Of a stretch of DNA of 64,000 bases, positions 6,791 through 59,168 are shown piece by piece. The stretch is from NCBI GenBank assembly GCA_016927565.1, contig JAFGMK010000013.1, positions 8,796-72,795 on the forward strand. Direction: 5' to 3'. Position 1 is the first letter of the stretch; each line of letters starts with the position of its first letter. The notes below the pieces were generated by a model. It was not told the DNA's origin and made no database searches. It worked only from the letters and a program-made list of their open reading frames with translations. The stretch is from Minisyncoccota bacterium. GTDB taxonomy: Bacteria > Patescibacteriota > Microgenomatia > PFEM01 > JAFGMK01. A program made the position numbers and the translations under genes.

Positions 6791-7339
6791 GTGGTTCACT
6801 TTGAGGAGGCATGGAATCCAACAAGTCAAGATAATTTGGGAAGAGCGGTTTTGGCGGGTCTAATTGGTTACTGGAGAAGGTTTCATGGAGACAAAACTGA
6901 ACCTCCAATTCTTCAGGACTCCTTTTTTCCTAGTAAGGCTACCTGTCAGGGGCTTTTTAGAGAAATTGCTGAAGCTTTTCCCGAGGCAAAATATATTTCT
7001 CACAAGATCCAGACAAAATTTCCTGCCGACAGGCTTTTAGTAGAAATAAACCCGGGGATAAATCTTTCAGATAAAGAAATTTTAGATATGACTGAGGAGA
7101 GGGGAATTGGTTTGGTATTTGACCCCAGTCATCTTCTTGCTTCTGAGAGGATGGTAAGTCGTCCCGGCTTGCCGACTAGACAGCCAAAAGGAGAATGGGA
7201 GAGGCAATTTCAGGTTTTTTCGTCAAGACTAGAGGTTGTTGATATTAATCCCGGCGATCAAAAAGGTGATGTTGGTGATTTATTGGCGGGAAGAGGAATG
7301 TTAAAAGAATTAGCTTCGGCGGCAGCAGATGCGGGGTAA
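6791..7339 (+). CDS. hypothetical ORF in a low-coding, higher-GC stretch; possibly not a real gene
   Basis: 182-aa ORF with no recognisable motifs. It sits in a 1.3 kb region otherwise lacking long ORFs. Confidence 0.2.
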   Translation: MVHFEEAWNPTSQDNLGRAVLAGLIGYWRRFHGDKTEPPILQDSFFPSKATCQGLFREIAEAFPEAKYISHKIQTKFPADRLLVEINPGINLSDKEILDMTEERGIGLVFDPSHLLASERMVSRPGLPTRQPKGEWERQFQVFSSRLEVVDINPGDQKGDVGDLLAGRGMLKELASAAADAG

Positions 7340-8755: not shown

Positions 8756-9735
8756 ATGAAACCTAACAAACACCCTTTCCAAAAGCGAATAAGTTTTAAG
8801 GGCCAGCTTTCAGTATTGCTAAAAGAAATAGTTAGTGACTATCACTTTGGTAGTTACTTGAGTCATAAGGTCATTGGGGTGGGATACGAAGACTTTAATG
8901 TTATTGTCAAGACAAGTAAAGGTAAGTATTTCTTCAAGTTTTTTGCCGACTTTAGAAGTGAGATTGATTGCCAGCGCTATGTTGAGATCATGTTGGCAGC
9001 GGTTACTGGGGGAGTAAGCCATCCGAAGTTATACGAGTCTATAACCAGGGTTACTTTCACAAAATCAAAACTGAGGATGGCCTGGTCAGGCTGGTGGCTC
9101 TTGAGTATATCGACGGCAAGAGTTTTTTTGATCTCAAACAAAAACCAACTGCCAAGGAGAGGGACTTTCTGGTCAGGCAGGCAGCTTTGATTAACGGTCT
9201 TCAGATTAGACCTAAACTTTTTTATGACTACTGGGCGGTAGTTAATTTCTTAAAAGAATATCAAGAAGTTAAAAAACATCTTGAAAAAAAGGATATAAAA
9301 CTAATTGATCCTCTGGCCGAAAAGTTCAAGCAGGTAGATGTCAAAAGTCTGCCTCGTTGTCTTGTCCATGGCGACATCATTGAAACTAATGTTATCCGTA
9401 GCCAAAAAGGAAGATTGTATATTTTTGATTTTTCTGTTGCCAATATCTATCCCCGAATTCAGGAACTGGCGGTTATGCTCTGTGATATTCTTTTTGTCCC
9501 GGAAAGAGGAAAGTTCCAGGCAATTTACCAAAGAACCCTTGATGTCTACCAAAAGGAGATCAAGCTTGAAAAAGCTGAGATTGAGGCGCTGCCTCTTCTT
9601 GTCCGGGCGGCTCATGCGATGCATATTATTGGTTCGGTAAAATATGCTCTTGAAGAGGGGGATTTTGAAGAAAATAAACATTGGATAAAGATGGGGAGGG
9701 AGGGTTTGGCTTTTACTAGAAAGTTTCGGGGATAA
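8756..9735 (+). pseudogene. aminoglycoside/small-molecule phosphotransferase (APH/ChoK fold) split by a single frameshift near 9040-9100
   Basis: Two overlapping ORFs in different frames (8756-9190 and 9094-9735). The first carries a nucleotide-binding loop region. The second carries the Brenner motif HGDIIETN and the IFDFS metal-binding Asp. Reading across gives ...KLYES / NQGYFHKIKTEDGLVRLVALEYIDG. Confidence 0.6.
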
Positions 9736-22878: not shown

Positions 22879-23325
22879 TTAACCGAAGGGAGCTTGGGCT
22901 GCTTTTCTGGCAGCTGCTTTGGTCCTAAAGGTTTCTTTCCAGTTTTTGCCTTTGGGTGGAAGGATCCGGCTTAACTGCCAGTCTATCTCAGTCCAAAACT
23001 GTTCACTTTTTTGTTTCTTAATCGCTCTGCCAAGGACCTCCCGGTAACCCTTCCCGGCATGTTTTAACCAAAGGGCGACTTTGCCTATTGTCGCTGAGCT
23101 AACCTTTAGAGTTTCGTTGATTGATTGGTAATCGTAGCCTTTCAAAAGCATGAGAGCAATGGCGACTCTTTTTCCCAGCATGATCTTTTCGGTGGGGCTC
23201 AACAAGTCTTTGAAAAAAAATTTAACTTCTTCTTTGCCGCGCAGGTCATCAATTACATCCGAAAAGAGCTTAAAAACCTGTTTTTCTACTTTCTTTTCTA
23301 AGGGATGTCGGGAAACTTGGGACAT
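22879..23325 (-). CDS. TrpR-like (YerC/YecD family) HTH protein, longer paralog
   Basis: FFFKDLLSPTEKIMLGKRVAIALMLLKGYDYQSINETLKVSSATIGKV...GKGYREVL parallels the 97-aa YerC-like protein at 29983-30276. Confidence 0.55.
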   Translation of the reverse strand: MSQVSRHPLEKKVEKQVFKLFSDVIDDLRGKEEVKFFFKDLLSPTEKIMLGKRVAIALMLLKGYDYQSINETLKVSSATIGKVALWLKHAGKGYREVLGRAIKKQKSEQFWTEIDWQLSRILPPKGKNWKETFRTKAAARKAAQAPFG

Positions 23326-23342: not shown

Positions 23343-23372
23343 ATACTTTAATAATTTAAATTATTAAAGTAT
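23343..23372. promoter_or_regulatory. perfect 30-bp palindrome ATACTTTAATAATTTAAATTATTAAAGTAT upstream of the TrpR-like gene, followed by (GGTT)4
   Basis: Seen directly. It ends 18 nt upstream of the start codon and overlaps the promoter/RBS region of the 22879-23325 gene. Confidence 0.5.
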
Positions 23373-29524: not shown

Positions 29525-29603
29525 GCCAGTGAACTCCCTCCATTCTGGGTATTATGGTTGTTTTTTCCCGCGTGGTCATGTTGATTCCTTTCTTTAAAAT
29601 TAA

Positions 29604-29690
29604 ACCACCCCGCCGGTGGCGGGGATCGTCTTTAATAAATTAAACTGATAAAAAAATATCAGCTACACCCGCCGGAAAGCGGGGAGTGGT
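29604..29690. repeat. pair of related GC hairpins (ccccgccggtggcgggg and cccgccggaaagcgggg) flanking an AT palindrome ctgataaaaaaatatcag
   Basis: Seen directly in the 450-bp spacer between the YerC-like gene and the PLP-enzyme operon. Confidence 0.45.
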
Positions 29691-29982
29691 GAGCTTGATT
29701 ATTTCTGACTTGTTTTGTCTGGCCCATGGTCAACCTCTTTATTGCTGTATATTACTATGGTAGCATGATGTAATCATTATAACATAATTGTCAAATTTTT
29801 GGGCGGGAAAGGGCTGTTGAATAAAAATTCACTCACCGTTACCCTGAGCCAAGCTAAGGATCCTTTTCGGCGGAGACTCTCCCGTTTACAGCTGGCAGAA
29901 AACAGGGTGTCGTATGCAGACATTTTAAAAATATCGATGTTTTTGGGTGCCTTGCGGGAGTGGTTAGACACGATTGGTCTTA

Positions 29983-30276
29983 TTATTTTTTCTGAAGCCT
30001 TTTTAAAACTAGCCGGTAACCGCCGAGGCCATGGTTAAGCCAATGGGCGACTCGGGTAACAGTCGTTGTGGAAACCCGGCATTTTCGGGCGATTTGCAAG
30101 TAAGAGTGTTTTTTTTCGAAAAGTAATTTGGCGATTTGAAAACGAATGGTGAGGTCGTTAATTTCTTTCAAAGTCAGAAGATCGCGGAAAAAATCGGCGG
30201 CTTCTTTTTGGTTCTTAAGTTTTAAAATTGCCAGTAATAATTCGTTGGTTGATTTTTTTGTTTTTTCAGAGGCCAT
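29983..30276 (-). CDS. TrpR-like transcriptional regulator, YerC/YecD family
   Basis: 97 aa with FFRDLLTLKEINDLTIRFQIAKLL...YLQIARKCRVSTTTVTRVAHWL...GGYRLVL, the canonical YerC/YecD pattern. Confidence 0.75.
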   Translation of the reverse strand: MASEKTKKSTNELLLAILKLKNQKEAADFFRDLLTLKEINDLTIRFQIAKLLFEKKHSYLQIARKCRVSTTTVTRVAHWLNHGLGGYRLVLKRLQKK

Positions 30277-30361: not shown

Positions 30362-30395
30362 TCTTGATATCATGATTCATATCATGGTATCAAGA
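30362..30395. promoter_or_regulatory. 34-bp near-palindrome TCTTGATATCATGAT-TCAT-ATCATGGTATCAAGA upstream of the YerC-like gene; candidate operator
   Basis: 15-bp inverted arms with one mismatch and a 4-bp spacer. It matches the site at 51306-51339 at 31 of 34 positions. Confidence 0.6.
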
Positions 30396-30451: not shown

Positions 30452-31162
30452 TTAATTTTCTGTTTCGGTTTCTTTTCCAGCTTCCTCGGATTCCGGAATG
30501 GGAGAAGGAAGGGTGACAATCCGGATAGTTTTGGCTGAAATCTGGTTTTTTTCTTCAGACAGACCGATAATAATTAAAAGACTATCTTCAGCCAATGACT
30601 CCGGCTCCAGCTCCTGAATCTCGCCGGCATCATTCTGATTAATTATGGTTTTGGGAGTGAGGATGACTTGCCAAGACTGGCTGTTTCTGAGGGGTTCGAG
30701 GTCAAACTGAGTTCTTTCAAGATTTTTTATTCGCCCCATAACGGCAATACGGTTATCCTGTTTGGGTTGGGAAATAACAACCACCCGGTTGGTTTCCAGC
30801 TGGTCGGCAGACTGGGAATAGCCCATGGTGATCAGATAATTGTCAATTTCTAAATCCTCGAATTTAATTTTCTGTCTGTTAGCGCCGATCAGAATCGTTT
30901 CTTGATCTATTTTAGCGGTTTTTTTACCCTGATCTGTTTCTAAAACAATGGTCTGATTGAAAAGATCGCTTACCTGACCGAAAAAGCCTCTTTTTTGTTT
31001 TTGGCTGATTTCGGTTTTTTCCTCGATTTTTTCCTCGACTTTTTTTCTGATAGATTCAATTAATTCGGCTTCTCCGCTGGAAGTTTGAGCTAAAGGCAGA
31101 GGAGGAAAGGTTAAGAATAAGAAAAAAATCAATAGGGTCGTTATTTTTGTTTTTTTCTTCAT
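30452..31162 (-). CDS. secreted hypothetical protein (signal peptide)
   Basis: N-terminus MKKKTKITTLLIFFLFLTFPPLPLAQTSS. Confidence 0.5.
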   Translation of the reverse strand: MKKKTKITTLLIFFLFLTFPPLPLAQTSSGEAELIESIRKKVEEKIEEKTEISQKQKRGFFGQVSDLFNQTIVLETDQGKKTAKIDQETILIGANRQKIKFEDLEIDNYLITMGYSQSADQLETNRVVVISQPKQDNRIAVMGRIKNLERTQFDLEPLRNSQSWQVILTPKTIINQNDAGEIQELEPESLAEDSLLIIIGLSEEKNQISAKTIRIVTLPSPIPESEEAGKETETEN

Positions 31163-37499: not shown

Positions 37500-38616
37500 A
37501 AAAACTCAGGCCCGAACGGGCTTGATTACTACCCTTAGCGGCAAAAAAATCTTTACCCCGGCTTTTGTTCCTGTCGGAACCCAGGCTACGGTTAAAAGTC
37601 TTTCGCCTGAGGATTTGCTGAAGATTGGAGTGCAGGTGATTTTTGTTAACTCTTATCACCTTCATCTCCGGCCCGGAGAGAGAACAGTTAAAAATTTGGG
37701 TGGCCTTAGTAATTTTATGAAATGGGCTGGCCCGATCATGACTGACAGCGGCGGTTTCCAGGTTTTTTCCCTGGGGAACGGTAAAAGGAAGCAGGCCTTA
37801 GGCTTGACCGGCGGAAATTTGGTTAAAACCAGTTCTGAAGGAGTCCGATTTCGATCTCATCTTGACGGTAAGTATTGTTTTTTGACTCCCCGGAAGGCGA
37901 TTCGGATTCAAAAAGACTTGGGTTCGGATATAATGATGGCTCTCGATGACTGCTCGGCTTACCCGGTGACTTTTAAAAGAGCTCGAAAAGCGATGGAACG
38001 AACTCATCTTTGGGCTCAGGAATCAATTCGCTGTCGTCAGCGGCTCGATCTTTCCGGAGCTCTCTACGGGATAATTCAGGGATCAGTTTTCAAATCTTTG
38101 CGGTTGGAATCAGCCAAATTTATAACCTCTCTGCCTTTTGACGGGATTGCTGTCGGTGGTTTGGCGGTGGGGGAAAGCAAACGGCAGATGAGGCAGGTGA
38201 TGAAATGGCTTGCTCCCTGGTTGCCGGAAACAAAGCCATGTCATCTGCTCGGCGTAGGTGAATTAGACGATATTGTGGATCTGGTCCAGTCCGGAGTCGA
38301 TACTTTTGATTGTGTAATGCCGACCAGATTGGGAAGGATGGGATGGATTATTGGCCAAAACGGGCGGTATGAGATTGCTAAGAAAGAATTCAGCAATGAT
38401 TGGCGGCCTCCGGACACTGGTTGCAAATGCTGGGTTTGTTGCCAGTTTAGCCGGGCTTATCTCCATCATCTTTTCCGCTCGAGGGAATTGTTGGCTTACC
38501 GTCTGGCCAGCTATCATAATTTGAGTTTTATGATTAGTTTTCTGGCAAAGATCAGAAAGAGTCTTAATGAAGGAACCTTTTCCCGGCTGGTGAGGAAGTT
38601 CAGAAATGAAAGCTAA
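37456..38616 (+). CDS. tgt: queuine tRNA-ribosyltransferase (tRNA-guanine transglycosylase)
   Basis: TIM-barrel motifs (PAFVPVGT, MTDSGGFQ, LDDC) and the C-terminal zinc site CKCWVCC...H. Confidence 0.9.
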   Translation: MYMKKFSFKILTKDKKTQARTGLITTLSGKKIFTPAFVPVGTQATVKSLSPEDLLKIGVQVIFVNSYHLHLRPGERTVKNLGGLSNFMKWAGPIMTDSGGFQVFSLGNGKRKQALGLTGGNLVKTSSEGVRFRSHLDGKYCFLTPRKAIRIQKDLGSDIMMALDDCSAYPVTFKRARKAMERTHLWAQESIRCRQRLDLSGALYGIIQGSVFKSLRLESAKFITSLPFDGIAVGGLAVGESKRQMRQVMKWLAPWLPETKPCHLLGVGELDDIVDLVQSGVDTFDCVMPTRLGRMGWIIGQNGRYEIAKKEFSNDWRPPDTGCKCWVCCQFSRAYLHHLFRSRELLAYRLASYHNLSFMISFLAKIRKSLNEGTFSRLVRKFRNES

Positions 38617-39580
38617 AAGAGAAAAAATAACTCAAAAGAAGAAGAAAAGGCGGCTTTTTGCCGGAAAGTTATTTCTGATAGCCGGTGGTTTGATTCTGCT
38701 GGTTTTGGGCCTGGTTTTGTTCAGATTTTTTCATCATTCCATCTTGCCGAAAGAGGGGCGCATCACGATCGGCCTCGGCCCGAAACCGCTGGTATTGGTT
38801 TCTTATTCGAAAGAAGAAGAAACCTTGGTTTTTTTATTGATTCCTGAAAAAATTTTGCTTCCGGCCGCTTATGGTTACGGCCAATATCGGATTGAGGCTT
38901 TTAAACGTTTGGCTGAATTGACAAATCGACCGTCTCTGCTTCAGGAAAGTTTATCATCCAGTTTAGCTTTGCCGCTTCATGGCTGGATAGAACAGCCGCA
39001 TTCTTTGCCGGAAGAGACCACTGGTCGCACTTTAAAAAAATGGTTTTTAGAGCAGATTAAGGAAAAACTTCTCGGTAAAGGCCAAACTGCTTTATTTCCG
39101 CTGGACCTTTTAAGATCGTGGTGGCTGATTTTGAGAAGTCCGGCTGCCAAGATCAGGGTTTTGACTTTGGCTGAGGATCGGGGCTTAAGAGAATCCGTTT
39201 TGCCTGACGGCAGTTTCTTTTGGGAATTTGCTGAAGAGGAAACCGATCAATTAGTTAAGGAGTTTTTTTCTGAAGGGCAAATTAAAAAAGAAAAAATTGC
39301 CATTGGGATTGCGAACGCTACCGGAAAGACCGGGTTAGCCAAAAAGGCAGCTCGCCTGGTGACTAATTTAGGCGGATCCGTGGTTGAGGTAACTGATTGG
39401 CCTTCATCCTTGACGAATTCTGTCCTCAGAATTGATCCTGATCGGGAAATTACTTTTTCAATTGAAAAAGTAGCCCGAGCTTTTAACTGCGAAATAAAAA
39501 GAATAAGCCCGGAGCCTTTTGCGGTTGATGCTCTTATGATTGTAGGTGAAGATTTTTCCCAAAAGATCGGTTTTGATTAG
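38606..39580 (+). CDS. membrane-anchored protein with a LytR C-terminal-like domain (possible LCP family)
   Basis: N-terminal TM. The C-terminal IAIGIANATGKTGLAKKAARLVTNLGGSVVEV resembles LytR_C. Confidence 0.4.
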   Translation: MKAKREKITQKKKKRRLFAGKLFLIAGGLILLVLGLVLFRFFHHSILPKEGRITIGLGPKPLVLVSYSKEEETLVFLLIPEKILLPAAYGYGQYRIEAFKRLAELTNRPSLLQESLSSSLALPLHGWIEQPHSLPEETTGRTLKKWFLEQIKEKLLGKGQTALFPLDLLRSWWLILRSPAAKIRVLTLAEDRGLRESVLPDGSFFWEFAEEETDQLVKEFFSEGQIKKEKIAIGIANATGKTGLAKKAARLVTNLGGSVVEVTDWPSSLTNSVLRIDPDREITFSIEKVARAFNCEIKRISPEPFAVDALMIVGEDFSQKIGFD

Positions 39581-49140: not shown

Positions 49141-51135
<1,995 letters not shown>

Positions 51136-51305
51136 TTATTGAAGCAAGAGAGATTCTATTGCAATTCATTATAACCAGTTGTTTTTTGAGTTTCAAGAGG
51201 TGAAAGGTTCAGGGGTTGTTTTTCTTTATCGGTAAAATTCCTTTGGGCAAATCTTTTCCTCTCAAGGAGAAAATCCGGGGCCATTTACCCGAACGGGCAG
51301 TTTTC

Positions 51306-51339
51306 TCTTGATACCATGATTCGAATCATGGTATCAAGA
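51306..51339. promoter_or_regulatory. perfect 34-bp palindrome TCTTGATACCATGAT-TCGA-ATCATGGTATCAAGA about 200 bp upstream of gyrB; second copy of the candidate YerC-type operator
   Basis: Perfect 15-bp arms and a palindromic spacer. Matches the site at 30362-30395 at 31 of 34 positions. Confidence 0.6.
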
Positions 51340-51370
51340 ATCCTGGTCTTCTTGATGATTAATTATCCCT

Positions 51371-52186
51371 TTACCTCCTCCCTATCCCTTTACCCCCCTT
51401 ATCCATCGGTAAAACTTCTTTATCGGCAAGATTCCTTTTGCGGGAGGTGATTTGAGGATAGCGGAGGAAAAGATTATCGATGACTAGACGGTGATTGACA
51501 TTTTTATCAATTAATTGATATGCCTTGTTGATTTTTTTGATGAGAATGGCTGTTCGGGAAACTGTCAGGGAAGGAAATAGTTCTTTAAAATCTTTAAACT
51601 TATCCGGATTTTGTTTCTCTTCTAATCCGGCTAAAAGAATTTGCCGCCAGGCATGAAGTTGTCCCAGAATAAATTCGGGTGCTTCTTTTTTATCAACAGC
51701 CAGCTTGGCAGTCAGCTGTAGTTTTTCGCCCGGTGATAAAAACAGAGCCTGGTGGATGATTTTAAGGTTTTCCGACAGTTTATCTGAAAAAAAATCAGTT
51801 GTTTGGCCGGGAGGCAATTTTATTATTTGGACGCGAGAAAGGATAGTAGGCAAAAGAGATTCGGCTTGCCGGGAGGTTAAAATAAGAATCGTGTCGGCGG
51901 GCGGTTCTTCCAGGGTCTTTAAAAGAGCGTTTTGGGCAGGCAGGGTCAGTTTTTCGGCTCCATAAATCAAGCCTGCTTTAAGTTTTAAGGCAAGAGGCTT
52001 ATAGAACAGCTTTTTTTTTAAGTTCCTGATCTGGCTGATTTTAATTGAGTCATCGGACTCGATGATAAAGACATCGGGATTCTGCCTGAAGTTTTTAATT
52101 GGTTTTTTTTGGATTTTTTCGATTATATTTTGAGCTTTGGCAAGCCTGGTCGGCGCGTCGGCTCCGGTAATCAAAAAAGCGTGCAT
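51371..52186 (-). CDS. holB: DNA polymerase III subunit delta'
   Basis: AQNALLKTLEEPP and LPTILSRVQ (SRC-like) motifs with a degenerate P-loop, as is typical for delta'. Confidence 0.7.
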   Translation of the reverse strand: MHAFLITGADAPTRLAKAQNIIEKIQKKPIKNFRQNPDVFIIESDDSIKISQIRNLKKKLFYKPLALKLKAGLIYGAEKLTLPAQNALLKTLEEPPADTILILTSRQAESLLPTILSRVQIIKLPPGQTTDFFSDKLSENLKIIHQALFLSPGEKLQLTAKLAVDKKEAPEFILGQLHAWRQILLAGLEEKQNPDKFKDFKELFPSLTVSRTAILIKKINKAYQLIDKNVNHRLVIDNLFLRYPQITSRKRNLADKEVLPMDKGGKGIGRR

Positions 52187-57046: not shown

Positions 57047-57083
57047 ACCCGAACTCCGCCAAAAAAATCGGTGCGGACGATTT
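57047..57083 (+). terminator. perfect 15-bp-stem hairpin (ccgccaaaaaaatcg-gtgcgga-cgatttttttggcgg) after the pilin gene
   Basis: Seen directly. Likely a terminator or attenuator separating the pilin gene from the downstream membrane-protein gene. Confidence 0.55.
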
Positions 57084-57092
57084 TTTTGGCGG

Positions 57093-59168
57093 ATGGGTTT
57101 TGGTTCAAAAATAGCCTGCGGTTTTGATATGGCTTCAAAATTCAAAAACATCAGGAGAGGGTGCTTTCTTTTTTTTCTTTTTTTCTGTTCGGCCGCTTTT
57201 TTTATTTTTTTTCAGAGCCCGGGTTTAACCGGAGGAGATGCCGGTGATTTGGCCAGCGCTGCTTTTACACAGGGAATTCCTCATCCGCCCGGTTATCCTC
57301 TCTATACACTGATCGGCCGCTGGCTGGTCCGATTGCCGATCGGGTCAACGCCGGCCTACCGGTTGGGATTTTTGTCTTCTTTGCCGGCGGCGGCGACAGT
57401 GGCGTTGTTTTTTTGGCTGGCTCTGAAAATAGCCGATGATTGGCTGCCGGCTTTAATCGCTTCTCTTTCTCTGGCTTTTAATTATCTTTTCTGGTATCAG
57501 GCCGAAGTTCAGGAAGTTTTTATGATTCATACCTTTTTTTTATTCTTAAGTCTTTTTCTGGCCTGGCTTTGGCTGAAAAAACCAAGTTTTAAACTGGTTC
57601 TGCTTTTGGCTTTAATCGCCGGCCTTGAATTCGGCCATCATCATACCTTTGTTTTAGTTCTGCCGGCCTTGGGTTATCTTTTGTTTTCCTGTTCTAAGAT
57701 AAAGAATTTGTTTAAAAAAAAACCTTTGTTAAAAGGAGGACTGGTTTTGGCCTGCCTTTCCGGGGGAATCTTTCTCTATTTAATCCTTTTTTACTCGACC
57801 GATCCCCTTTCGCCGGTTAATTGGGCCTTTGGTCAGGATCTGCCGGCCTTGGTAAGGTTGATTTTTCGGTCTAACTACGGCACTTTCTCTCCGATGAAAG
57901 GAGCCCGGTTTTCTTTTTCCGGCGGTTTTTTAGCTCTTTTGGGCCTGGCTCATTTTATTTATTTTGAGTTTACTCTGGTTGGGTTGTTTTTAATGGTGGT
58001 TGGCTTTGTCTGGTGGTGGCAAAAAAACCAAGTTTTTTTGCGCTTCAGTCTGATCTGGTTTGGTTTTACGGGAGTTTTTTTTCTCTTTTATGCCGGCTAC
58101 CCGTTGTCGAATTGGTTTTCGATGGCAACTGTGGAACGGTTTTATCTTCTCTCATACCCGGTTTTTTTCTTGTGGTTGATTGGCGGCTTGGAATGGATTA
58201 AGGCAAGGATTGCCGTCTTAAAAATAAAGGCGGATTTTAAAAGAGGGTTGCTGCTTTTGTTTTTGGCCTATCCCCTATTTTTGTTTTTTCTGAACTTAAA
58301 GAAAAATGATTACCGTCACTTCTGGCAGTTTGACCGATTCGGAGAAAGGCTTCTGAACTCCTGTCCGGCGGAAGCGGTTTTTTTAAACGGGGGCGATTTG
58401 CAAACTTTTGCCAGTCTTTATGCCCAGTATGTTAAAGGAGTAAGGCCGGATTTAAAAATGATCAGTCTTTTTAACCCGGCTCGGGCGATTTTTCATCTCG
58501 AGGAACTGTCCCAATTCAGGAATTATTTTGAGGTCGGGGCTCAACCTCGGGAAGAGTTCTGGCCGGATTTCAAAACCTTTTTGAAAGAAAAGCGGTTTCC
58601 TGTCTGTTCGGCCGGAGAAATCAGTTTAGGCGAGGATTATTTAGTTTATCCCCGGGGTTTAGTTTATGTCCATGCTTTGGGTTTTGCTCCGGACATTCAG
58701 ACGATTTTTGCTGATAATGAAAAACTTTGGAACGAATGGAAACCGGAAATCTTTGTAACCCGGAATTCGCTTTATGAAACCTTTTTTAATCGGCAATTGC
58801 TTGATCTTTATTATCAAAAAGCTTTTTCCCTAAGTGAATTTTTTTTCTTAAACAACGAGTTTGAAAAAACCCGGAGCTGGCTTGAGAAGGCTCTTTGGTA
58901 TCAACCCAATTCCGCTTCAGTTTTAAGAACCAGTATTTTGGTGGACATTAAAACCGGTCAATGCCAGGAGGCCGAGTCAAAGATTAGCCGGTTCCGTCTT
59001 TTGTTTGAAAAGATTAAATCCTGGCCGCTGATTGAAGCGGTTTATGAAAAAGAATGTTTGGGAAAGGAAGAAAAATATCAGCAGCTTTCGCGAGATTTGG
59101 GAATGGTTGAAGCTTCAGGCTCTTCTGAGATGGCCGAGGGAGACAAGGAAGAAAAAATACACCCCTAG
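57093..59168 (+). CDS. DUF2723-like polytopic membrane protein with C-terminal TPR-like region; putative GT-C type protein glycosyl/mannosyltransferase
   Basis: GDAGDLASAAFTQGIPHPPGYPLY N-terminal motif characteristic of DUF2723/TMEM260-like proteins, many TMs, and a soluble TPR-like C-terminus. Confidence 0.55.
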   Translation: MGFGSKIACGFDMASKFKNIRRGCFLFFLFFCSAAFFIFFQSPGLTGGDAGDLASAAFTQGIPHPPGYPLYTLIGRWLVRLPIGSTPAYRLGFLSSLPAAATVALFFWLALKIADDWLPALIASLSLAFNYLFWYQAEVQEVFMIHTFFLFLSLFLAWLWLKKPSFKLVLLLALIAGLEFGHHHTFVLVLPALGYLLFSCSKIKNLFKKKPLLKGGLVLACLSGGIFLYLILFYSTDPLSPVNWAFGQDLPALVRLIFRSNYGTFSPMKGARFSFSGGFLALLGLAHFIYFEFTLVGLFLMVVGFVWWWQKNQVFLRFSLIWFGFTGVFFLFYAGYPLSNWFSMATVERFYLLSYPVFFLWLIGGLEWIKARIAVLKIKADFKRGLLLLFLAYPLFLFFLNLKKNDYRHFWQFDRFGERLLNSCPAEAVFLNGGDLQTFASLYAQYVKGVRPDLKMISLFNPARAIFHLEELSQFRNYFEVGAQPREEFWPDFKTFLKEKRFPVCSAGEISLGEDYLVYPRGLVYVHALGFAPDIQTIFADNEKLWNEWKPEIFVTRNSLYETFFNRQLLDLYYQKAFSLSEFFFLNNEFEKTRSWLEKALWYQPNSASVLRTSILVDIKTGQCQEAESKISRFRLLFEKIKSWPLIEAVYEKECLGKEEKYQQLSRDLGMVEASGSSEMAEGDKEEKIHP

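Follow-up and report, generated by a model that had tools for sequence, protein, structure and literature searches.

A perfect palindrome in the holB–gyrB spacer of a Minisyncoccota bacterium as a candidate operator of a long TrpR-family regulator

Introduction

The spacer between a holB-like gene and gyrB in a Minisyncoccota bacterium (GenBank assembly GCA_016927565.1) contains a perfect 34-bp palindrome, TCTTGATACCATGATTCGAATCATGGTATCAAGA, and the question raised by this locus is which protein would recognise such a sequence and whether gyrB would be its target. The palindrome lies at positions 51306–51339 of a 64000-nt stretch of contig JAFGMK010000013.1 (contig positions 8796 to 72795, forward strand), which was analysed over its full length and is referred to as the window; coordinates are those of the window unless they follow the number of another locus (prefix L). 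To our knowledge, transcriptional regulation in the Patescibacteria (candidate phyla radiation, CPR) is almost uncharted. The analysis points, with a probability that we put at roughly 0.6, to an operator-type binding site of a Patescibacteria-specific subfamily of TrpR-family regulators of ~148 amino acids (aa), represented here by the product of the open reading frame (ORF) at 22879–23325 on the minus strand. This reading is supported by the conservation of the core of the palindrome in many genomes and by the occurrence of its inner 14 bp directly upstream of TrpR-family genes.

The palindrome and its expected frequency

A preliminary description of this DNA had recorded a perfect 34-bp palindrome at 51306–51339, as a reading of the sequence confirms, but had divided it into 15-bp arms and a TCGA spacer. 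The TCGA is present at the centre, but as it is self-complementary the palindrome consists of two perfect arms of 17 nt with no spacer. The other copy referred to in that description was found at 30362–30395 (TCTTGATATCATGATTCATATCATGGTATCAAGA) and is imperfect, as its arms differ at one position and its centre is TCAT, so that 51306–51339 is the perfect copy. It is also the longest perfect palindrome of the window, the runner-up being a sequence with 15-nt arms at 23343–23372. First-order Markov simulation of the window (40 sequences) gave no arm longer than 11 nt and, on average, 0.18 palindromes per sequence with arms of at least that length; the palindrome at 51306–51339 is real and far above chance.

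The 34 bp include a 26-bp core known from 70 other loci and, within it, an inner 14-bp core, ATGATTCGAATCAT (51316–51329), which is the part common to sites upstream of genes for long TrpR-like proteins. The pattern ATRATTNNAATYAT is matched in the window only here and at 23351–23364, where 0.01 matches would be expected.

Recurrence of the core in metagenomes and genomes

Metagenome contigs were scanned for exact matches to GATAYCATGAT-N4-ATCATGRTATC, a pattern with 20 fixed and 2 two-fold positions for which we estimate ~1 match per 4e12 bases, and 67 loci were recovered against a chance expectation of <1. A scan of species-representative genomes for exact matches to TTGATAYCATG-N8-CATGRTATCAA gave three sites, two in a 686-kb metagenome-assembled genome (MAG) of Candidatus Blackburnbacteria and one in a Saccharibacteria contig, and the Blackburnbacteria sites align with the window over the palindrome alone. 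Palindromes of 26–34 bp that embed the inner 14-bp core are conserved from Pacebacteria to Saccharibacteria. Viral contigs gave 0 matches to the palindrome pattern, and an association with phages was rejected on this ground.

About 31 distinct contexts have a Patescibacteria-like composition of 33–54% G+C, and the site is intergenic in all of them except two (L015 and L068), which may be artefacts of our own ORF calling. The window type (class C) reads GATACC...TCGA...GGTATC, and class B, aGTGATATCATGATTTAAATCATGATATCACt, occurs in numerous groundwater samples with many differing flanks; the outer arms in the commonest class are GTGATA/TATCAC. The centre bases are uniform inside a genome and differ among genomes, and many of the metagenome contigs terminate at the palindrome. 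Genes that neighbour the sites in various genomes include gyrB-gyrA, dprA, a gene for a UvrD-like helicase, dcd-thyX, folD, trpS, obg and lepA, and topA and glyA end just before sites.

Class A matches were set aside as a separate phenomenon resembling repetitive extragenic palindromic (REP) sequences, with no TrpR-like gene in those loci. They derive from genomes of ~60–65% G+C, in which a palindrome of ~48 bp is built from tandem GATATCAT units around AGCT with an 8-bp periodicity and is present in many intergenic copies, some of them between convergent genes. Class A loci are L005, L009, L011, L012, L014, L018, L022, L028, L029, L033, L047, L053, L065, L066 and others, with contigs Ga0156236 and Ga0156027 among the examples.

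A long TrpR-family regulator as the candidate binder

The best candidate for a protein that would bind these sites is the 148-aa product of the gene at 22879–23325 (minus strand), a 'long YerC-like' member of the TrpR family with a precomputed PF01371 assignment (P0121). It scores 41.7 bits against TIGR02531 (cut-off 42.2), and its relatives in PDB are 3frw, 3kor and 3g1c. Proteins of this long type share in alignment an N-terminus of the form MxQVSKYPL, a C-terminal LPPKGxNW extension and a length of ~148 aa, and they form at least 433 clusters at 50% identity (E<=1e-10). Two TrpR-family regulators are encoded in the window, the second at 29983–30276 on the minus strand, and a further 17 kb of flanking DNA from this organism yielded no third TrpR-like paralogue.

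Upstream of the 148-aa gene is a perfect 30-bp palindrome (ATACTTTAATAATTT joined to AAATTATTAAAGTAT, with the variant core ATAATTTAAATTAT) that is presumed to be an autoregulatory operator. It is located at 23343–23372, 17 nt upstream of the ATG, begins 18 nt after a TTGACA hexamer (23396–23391) and occupies the -10/+1 position of that promoter. This site closely flanks or overlaps the promoter of its presumed target, which is not so for the palindrome at 51306–51339.

The same arrangement was found in other genomes. Genes for TrpR-family proteins of 146–155 aa (PF01371, E 1e-11 to 1e-15) have their 5' end facing the palindrome in L010, L021, L046/L052 and L063. In a reverse test, four orthologues (L076–L079) were picked by similarity to the 148-aa protein, with the motif ignored, and the DNA upstream of each was then read. 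Three of the four have ATGATTNNAATCAT with at most 1 mismatch 15–34 nt upstream of the ATG, the sites being TTGATTTAATGATTTAAATCATTGATACA in L076, TACTTCAATGATTTAAATCATTGAAGTA in L077 and TCAATGATTTGAAACATTGA in L078. The regulator gene in L045 has TTACTATGATTTAAATCATAGTAA 8 nt ahead of its ATG, and a copy of the GATACC type lies at the stop codon of the gene. Overall, the core (at most 1 mismatch) is present 8–64 nt upstream of the start codon in eight of ten long-type genes (L010, L021, L045, L046, L063, L076, L077 and L078), the others being the window gene with its variant core and L079 with none upstream. We estimate the chance of finding the core in a 70-nt upstream region at ~1.5e-4.

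The common denominator of these sites is the 14-bp core ATGATT-NN-AATCAT, around which the outer arms vary. In several cases the core is kept and the arms differ in one and the same genome, as in L045 (TTACT vs GATACC), L021 (GATATC vs GATACA) and L004 (a degenerate second copy), as would be expected if these are binding sites. As regulators accompanied by the same 26-bp core are 45–68% identical, it is likely that the core is held by purifying selection and does not reflect recent copying alone.

The contig of L076 carries four identical 27-mers, GATTTAATGATTTAAATCATTGATACA, at positions 2256, 2391, 2868 and 6182 within 10 kb. One is located 50 nt after topA, one before the TrpR-like gene, one fills the spacer between the regulator and dcd (ahead of dcd-thyX) and one fills the glyA/folD spacer, which hints at a link of the L076 sites to thymidylate and folate genes and to DNA topology.

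The position of the copy at 30362–30395 points to the adjacent 97-aa YerC/YecD (HisR-type) regulator of the TrpR family (29983–30276, minus strand; PF01371, E 1e-22; 76 bits against the TIGR02531 cut-off of 42.2). This assignment is probably wrong. In orthologues of the 97-aa gene with 68–70% identity, the order of a gene for a Big_6 protein, a gene for a 245-aa protein and yerC is kept, but no such palindrome was found in the spacers (7–47 nt) ahead of the gene. The orthologues carry instead TACTATAGTA-like motifs, both upstream of the gene and after a conserved promoter downstream of it, and it is the ~148-aa family that carries the palindrome. An autoregulatory operator of the 97-aa gene was therefore rejected as the main explanation of this copy. 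From these comparisons, the 97-aa protein is probably a neighbour and not the binder, and the 148-aa regulator is the likely one of the two to bind the palindromes, although the 97-aa gene is a possible target of that regulator or its product a possible alternative binder.

Downstream of the 97-aa gene (29590–29830, minus strand), a TTGACA ... TATAAT-like promoter is followed by [A/C]TAC[C/T]ATAGTAATAT and by two CCCCGC...GCGGGG hairpins. Promoter, motif and hairpins of the CCCGC...GCGGG type recur downstream of yerC orthologues in L071–L075, and the next gene in L074 encodes an aromatic/histidine ammonia-lyase. No match to this element was found in Rfam. It may serve the short YerC (HisR-like) regulator as operator and leader, or it may be an RNA not yet annotated.

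Relationship to HisR and TrpR

The nearest characterised precedent for the family is HisR, the YerC protein of Bacillus subtilis, a TrpR-family histidine repressor that recognises 20-bp palindromes of the form cacTTTA-N6-TAAAgtg and, in roughly half of genomes, regulates its own gene (PMC9413887). The system described here resembles those of HisR and TrpR in that the candidate binder is a PF01371 protein that matches the YerC/YecD model or comes close to it, in that the site is palindromic, and in that one site lies upstream of the regulator's own gene with further sites ahead of other genes. By eye, the HisR consensus core, TTTA-N6-TAAA, also appears twice in the palindrome at 23343–23372, the two units being offset by 8 bp. 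Tandem TrpR dimers are known to be phased in this way, and tandem binding is known for TrpR of Escherichia coli.

However, the motif is ATGATT-NN-AATCAT in palindromes of 26–34 bp, whereas the sites of HisR (cacTTTA-N6-TAAAgtg) and TrpR (TGTAcTnGTnnACnAgTACA) are both 20 bp, and the regulator is ~148 aa long with a C-terminal extension, whereas theirs are <100 aa. The neighbouring genes are not those of amino-acid biosynthesis, some sites are at gene 3' ends or between convergent genes, and copies within a genome are near-identical. Membership of the HisR/YerC regulon proper was rejected for 51306–51339, as its sequence differs from the HisR consensus and its neighbours are holB and gyrB, not his genes. 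Elsewhere in the window, a perfect 22-bp palindrome, TACTTTTTCAATTGAAAAAGTA (39451–39472), within the ORF at 38606–39580 on the plus strand has ACTTT...AAAGT arms that recall a HisR-type half-site.

If the palindromes are operators of the 148-aa family, at least two regulator dimers would bind the long palindrome, and the regulator would repress its own gene and would repress or insulate neighbouring transcription units.

Several observations weigh against this. The site upstream of the window regulator itself has an ATAATT and not an ATGATT core, together with different arms, and L079 lacks the core upstream of its regulator gene, with ATGATTCGAATCAT found 11 nt after the stop codon. The genes beside the sites share no single functional theme. 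Copies inside a genome are near-identical over 27–39 bp, asymmetric features included, as with the four identical copies in L076; such near-identity is seldom seen among the sites of a regulon and is characteristic of copy-and-paste elements. Sites are also found between convergent genes or at gene 3' ends (L001, L025, L041, L045, L078 and position 4594 of L004), where there is no promoter to control. Finally, the palindrome at 51306–51339 is 109 nt upstream of the -35 hexamer of the predicted gyrB promoter, with its centre at about -161 from the predicted gyrB start, and the core motif was not found in the holB–gyrB spacers (46–180 nt) of three relatives, L080, L081 and L082.

The copy between holB and gyrB

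As previously described, the palindrome is 3' of holB and 5' of gyrB with both genes on the minus strand, and this agrees with the ORF matches. The holB-like gene (51371–52186, minus strand), for the delta' subunit of DNA polymerase III, matches DNA_pol3_delta2, and gyrB (49141–51102, minus strand) is the first gene of a gyrB-ppa-gyrA group. The palindrome is located 31 nt past the holB stop codon and 203 nt ahead of the gyrB ATG. The predicted gyrB promoter, TTGAAA-17-TATAAT (51168–51196, minus strand), is conserved among the relatives, with the same hexamers in L080 and L082 and a TTGACA/TATAAT version in L081; all three have the order pilB/holB/gyrB/ppa/gyrA as in the window. As the spacers of these syntenic relatives lack the core, the holB–gyrB copy would be a lineage-specific gain in an enlarged spacer. 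The proposal of a candidate operator at gyrB is thus retained for the palindrome family as an operator type but not for control of gyrB itself, for which position and lack of conservation in relatives leave only a weak link.

Under the operator reading, a protein bound at 51306–51339 would block read-through from holB into gyrB-ppa-gyrA or would act at a distal auxiliary site. Occlusion of the gyrB promoter is improbable, as the promoter is 109 nt further downstream.

How the spacer came to be enlarged is suggested by features in and beside it. The holB-like protein is extended by 27 aa at its C-terminus compared with its closest homologue (P0177), direct repeats TTCTTTATCGGTAAAATTCCTTT at 51222, 51399 and 51416 flank the site, and a 12-nt perfect inverted pair is present at 51250–51261 and 51464–51475. 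The spacer also weakly resembles the 3' coding sequence of holB (score 43 vs 25.7 +/- 4.3 for shuffles). The extension, the direct repeats and the inverted pair suggest that a partial duplication of the holB 3' end enlarged the spacer.

A further feature of this spacer, TCTTGATGA, had been interpreted as a partial third half-site at 51349–51357. The sequence is present, though one base further on (51350–51358, plus strand), and its role as a half-site is unsupported. TTGAT is only weakly enriched in the flanks of the sites (10 observed vs 5.9 expected), and the sequence aligns locally with the weak duplicate of the holB 3' coding sequence; the third half-site was dropped on these grounds.

Two hairpins in the spacer were also noted. 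A weak terminator-like hairpin at 51273–51294 (minus strand), 11 nt past the palindrome on the gene strand and followed by TTTCTCC, could be the end of the holB transcript. In the gyrB 5' leader, between the predicted start and the ATG, a second terminator-like hairpin, CTCTCTTgcttcaatAAGAGAG (51131–51152, minus strand), is followed by T7; an analogous hairpin and T-run are found in the gyrB leader of L081 at ~6840–6880, and the hairpin may be an attenuator.

Further copies and alternative explanations

Three copies of the palindrome are known in ~81 kb of the window organism. The copy at 30362–30395 is 85 nt upstream of the 97-aa gene and 56 nt past the stop codon of the ORF at 30452–31162, and it has one mismatch to the 14-bp core. 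It shares 39 bp (AT + 34 + GAA) with 51306–51339, which is inverted relative to it; no similarity was found between the two past these 39 bp, flank alignments being no better than shuffles. The third copy, TCTTGATATCATGATTCATATCATAGTATCAGC, is located 8.7 kb beyond the start of the window (L083, 561–594) in ~800 nt without called genes, is flanked by T-runs, has a radical-SAM gene 205 nt downstream and shares the asymmetric TCAT centre of the copy at 30362–30395. Near-identity of copies within genomes, copies at gene 3' ends and insertions beside palindromes keep mobile-element and recombination explanations alive as rivals of the operator reading.

The rival that survives best, although we consider it unlikely, is a small copy-and-paste palindrome, like a REP sequence or a miniature inverted-repeat transposable element (MITE), recently inserted in the holB–gyrB spacer with no specific role for gyrB; protein binding would then be incidental or in the service of the element. 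Each of the three copies occupies a non-coding stretch of unusual length (176 nt, 268 nt and ~800 nt), and the two of these spacers that have syntenic counterparts are matched by short ones (7–47 and 46–180 nt) without the element. The near-identity of copies within a genome extends to their asymmetries. Many sites lie against the stop codon of the ORF before them, or provide it, or sit between convergent genes, numerous metagenome contigs end at the palindrome, and a related 48-bp palindrome exists in many intergenic copies in the high-G+C genomes of class A. In its several near-identical copies, its position often just past stop codons and its presence or absence between related genomes, the palindrome resembles REP sequences, bacterial interspersed mosaic elements (BIMEs) and MITEs, which are likewise short and extragenic.

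However, the copy number appears to be very low, with 3 copies in ~81 kb and 2 strict matches in the 686-kb MAG, and the core is kept over phylum-level distances, unlike REP sequences, which as a rule are confined to one species. The copies have no more than 39 bp in common, without detectable terminal repeats or target duplication and with unrelated flanks, and a wider, MITE-sized repeat unit was rejected as the flanks aligned no better than shuffled sequence. Neither the window nor its flanking extensions showed a transposase, and neither a transposase of the REP-associated tyrosine transposase (RAYT) type nor a 5' GTAG-type signature is in view. The absence of matches in viral contigs also counts against such an element, as does the repeated tight placement 8–64 nt upstream of one regulator family, which would be unexpected for a selfish repeat.

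A mixed explanation, which we regard as doubtful, is that the palindromes serve in Patescibacteria both as operators and as junctions for module exchange or homing, with the long TrpR-like protein as the site-recognition factor. Genes or operons bracketed by or inserted at 26–34-bp palindromes include the TrpR-like gene, a dprA-comM-like group and a gene for a 225-aa helix-turn-helix (HTH) protein. Module exchange would explain the near-identical copies, the lineage-specific gains, the alternative junctions and the uniformity of the centre within genomes.

An explanation as a recombination or homing target appears very unlikely. The palindrome would mark the boundary of exchangeable gene modules (cf. 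plasmid pdif) or would be an insertion site for small HTH genes, cut or recombined by a site-specific enzyme. The length of ~26–34 bp, the inverted arms around a short centre, the bracketed genes and the structural variants at sites recall Xer dif/pdif and loxP-like sites. Compared with L004, L044 has the same locus with 715 bp inserted precisely at the palindrome edge; the insert carries the gene for the 225-aa HTH protein, and a 78% identical gene adjoins another palindrome upstream of trpS in L035 (5307–5984). In L062/L055, ~190 bp beside the palindrome of the L013 locus are replaced by a segment of 330–380 bp, which adjoins a different palindrome in L042/L043. In L045, L076, L078 and L004 a palindrome stands on either side of a regulator gene or operon, and a centre that is uniform within and variable between genomes is what recombining partners would require.

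No recombinase or nuclease gene is consistently adjacent to the sites, however, the 225-aa protein having weak HTH matches only, and the DNA between the copies in the window is housekeeping (gyrA, gyrB, ppa and tRNA-Leu). The hybrid junctions may be due to chimeric assembly at a 32–34-bp repeat, and a 4-bp or fully palindromic centre is atypical of tyrosine-recombinase sites. There is no resemblance to dif sequences, and a dif or origin-related site was rejected, since GC skew is positive throughout the window with no switch or terminus and multiple copies occur per 10 kb (4 in 10 kb in L076).

Two of these variants were noted in their own right. The 225-aa gene at the palindrome edge in one variant of the dprA locus (L044 vs L004) encodes an N-terminal HTH with no confident family match and looks like a mobile gene that targets palindromes. 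L013, L042, L043, L055 and L062 represent one population in different metagenomes, with flank combinations a+b, c+d and a+d beside the palindrome; these arose either from true recombination there or from chimeric assembly across a 34-bp repeat.

A role in RNA, in which the palindrome in the holB transcript would fold as a 15–16-bp hairpin and stabilise or terminate the message together with the next hairpin and a U-rich tract, is also improbable. The position 31 nt past the holB stop codon would suit it, as would the many family members right at gene 3' ends, and the predicted fold of 51345–51262 (minus strand) has an energy of -32.3 kcal/mol (z = -4.25) with two hairpins, the second followed by UUUUCUCC. 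However, no U-tract directly follows the palindrome, the stem is AU-rich, and most copies are upstream of start codons, divergent promoter regions included. Moreover, 14–26 bp of primary sequence are kept across distant genomes and do not covary, which indicates sequence-specific recognition. Rfam gave no match at the palindrome, tRNA-Leu being the sole match in the window. An intrinsic terminator was rejected as the stem is AT-rich, neither strand has a T-run after the palindrome and the terminator scan made no call there. At 57055–57093, between two plus-strand ORFs, a 16-nt perfect inverted repeat (TCCGCCAAAAAAATCG and CGATTTTTTTGGCGGA) encloses a 7-nt loop and resembles a terminator-like hairpin that would work in both directions.

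Highly improbable, finally, is that the palindrome provides the gyrase operon with a supercoiling-sensitive cruciform or with a bidirectional promoter complete in itself (TTGATA-N18-TATCAA with TGn). In favour of this, the palindrome is perfect, spacer-less, AT-rich and beside gyrB, one L076 copy follows topA and the arms read by eye as TTGATA ... TGgTATCAA at promoter-like spacing. However, most family members adjoin genes that have nothing to do with DNA topology, the -35-like hexamer is not kept (the commonest class having GTGATA/TATCAC outer arms), the -10-like TATCAA lacks T6 and was not called by the promoter scan, and the conserved gyrB promoter sits elsewhere.

Conclusions

The palindrome and its regulator are most likely, on the comparative evidence, another case of a TrpR-family operator, of a kind already known, though the pair itself is new to the literature searched, in which no description of a TrpR-family regulator–motif pair in Patescibacteria was found. 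For the copy in the holB–gyrB spacer caution is due, as it was probably gained within the lineage and sits far from the conserved gyrB promoter. What the locus provides is a concrete regulator–motif pair, consisting of a ~148-aa family with at least 433 clusters and a 14-bp core within palindromes of 26–34 bp. If binding is true, the pair could help to predict control linked to growth or DNA metabolism, and its targets would be among the first regulons defined for the reduced, uncultured Patescibacteria.

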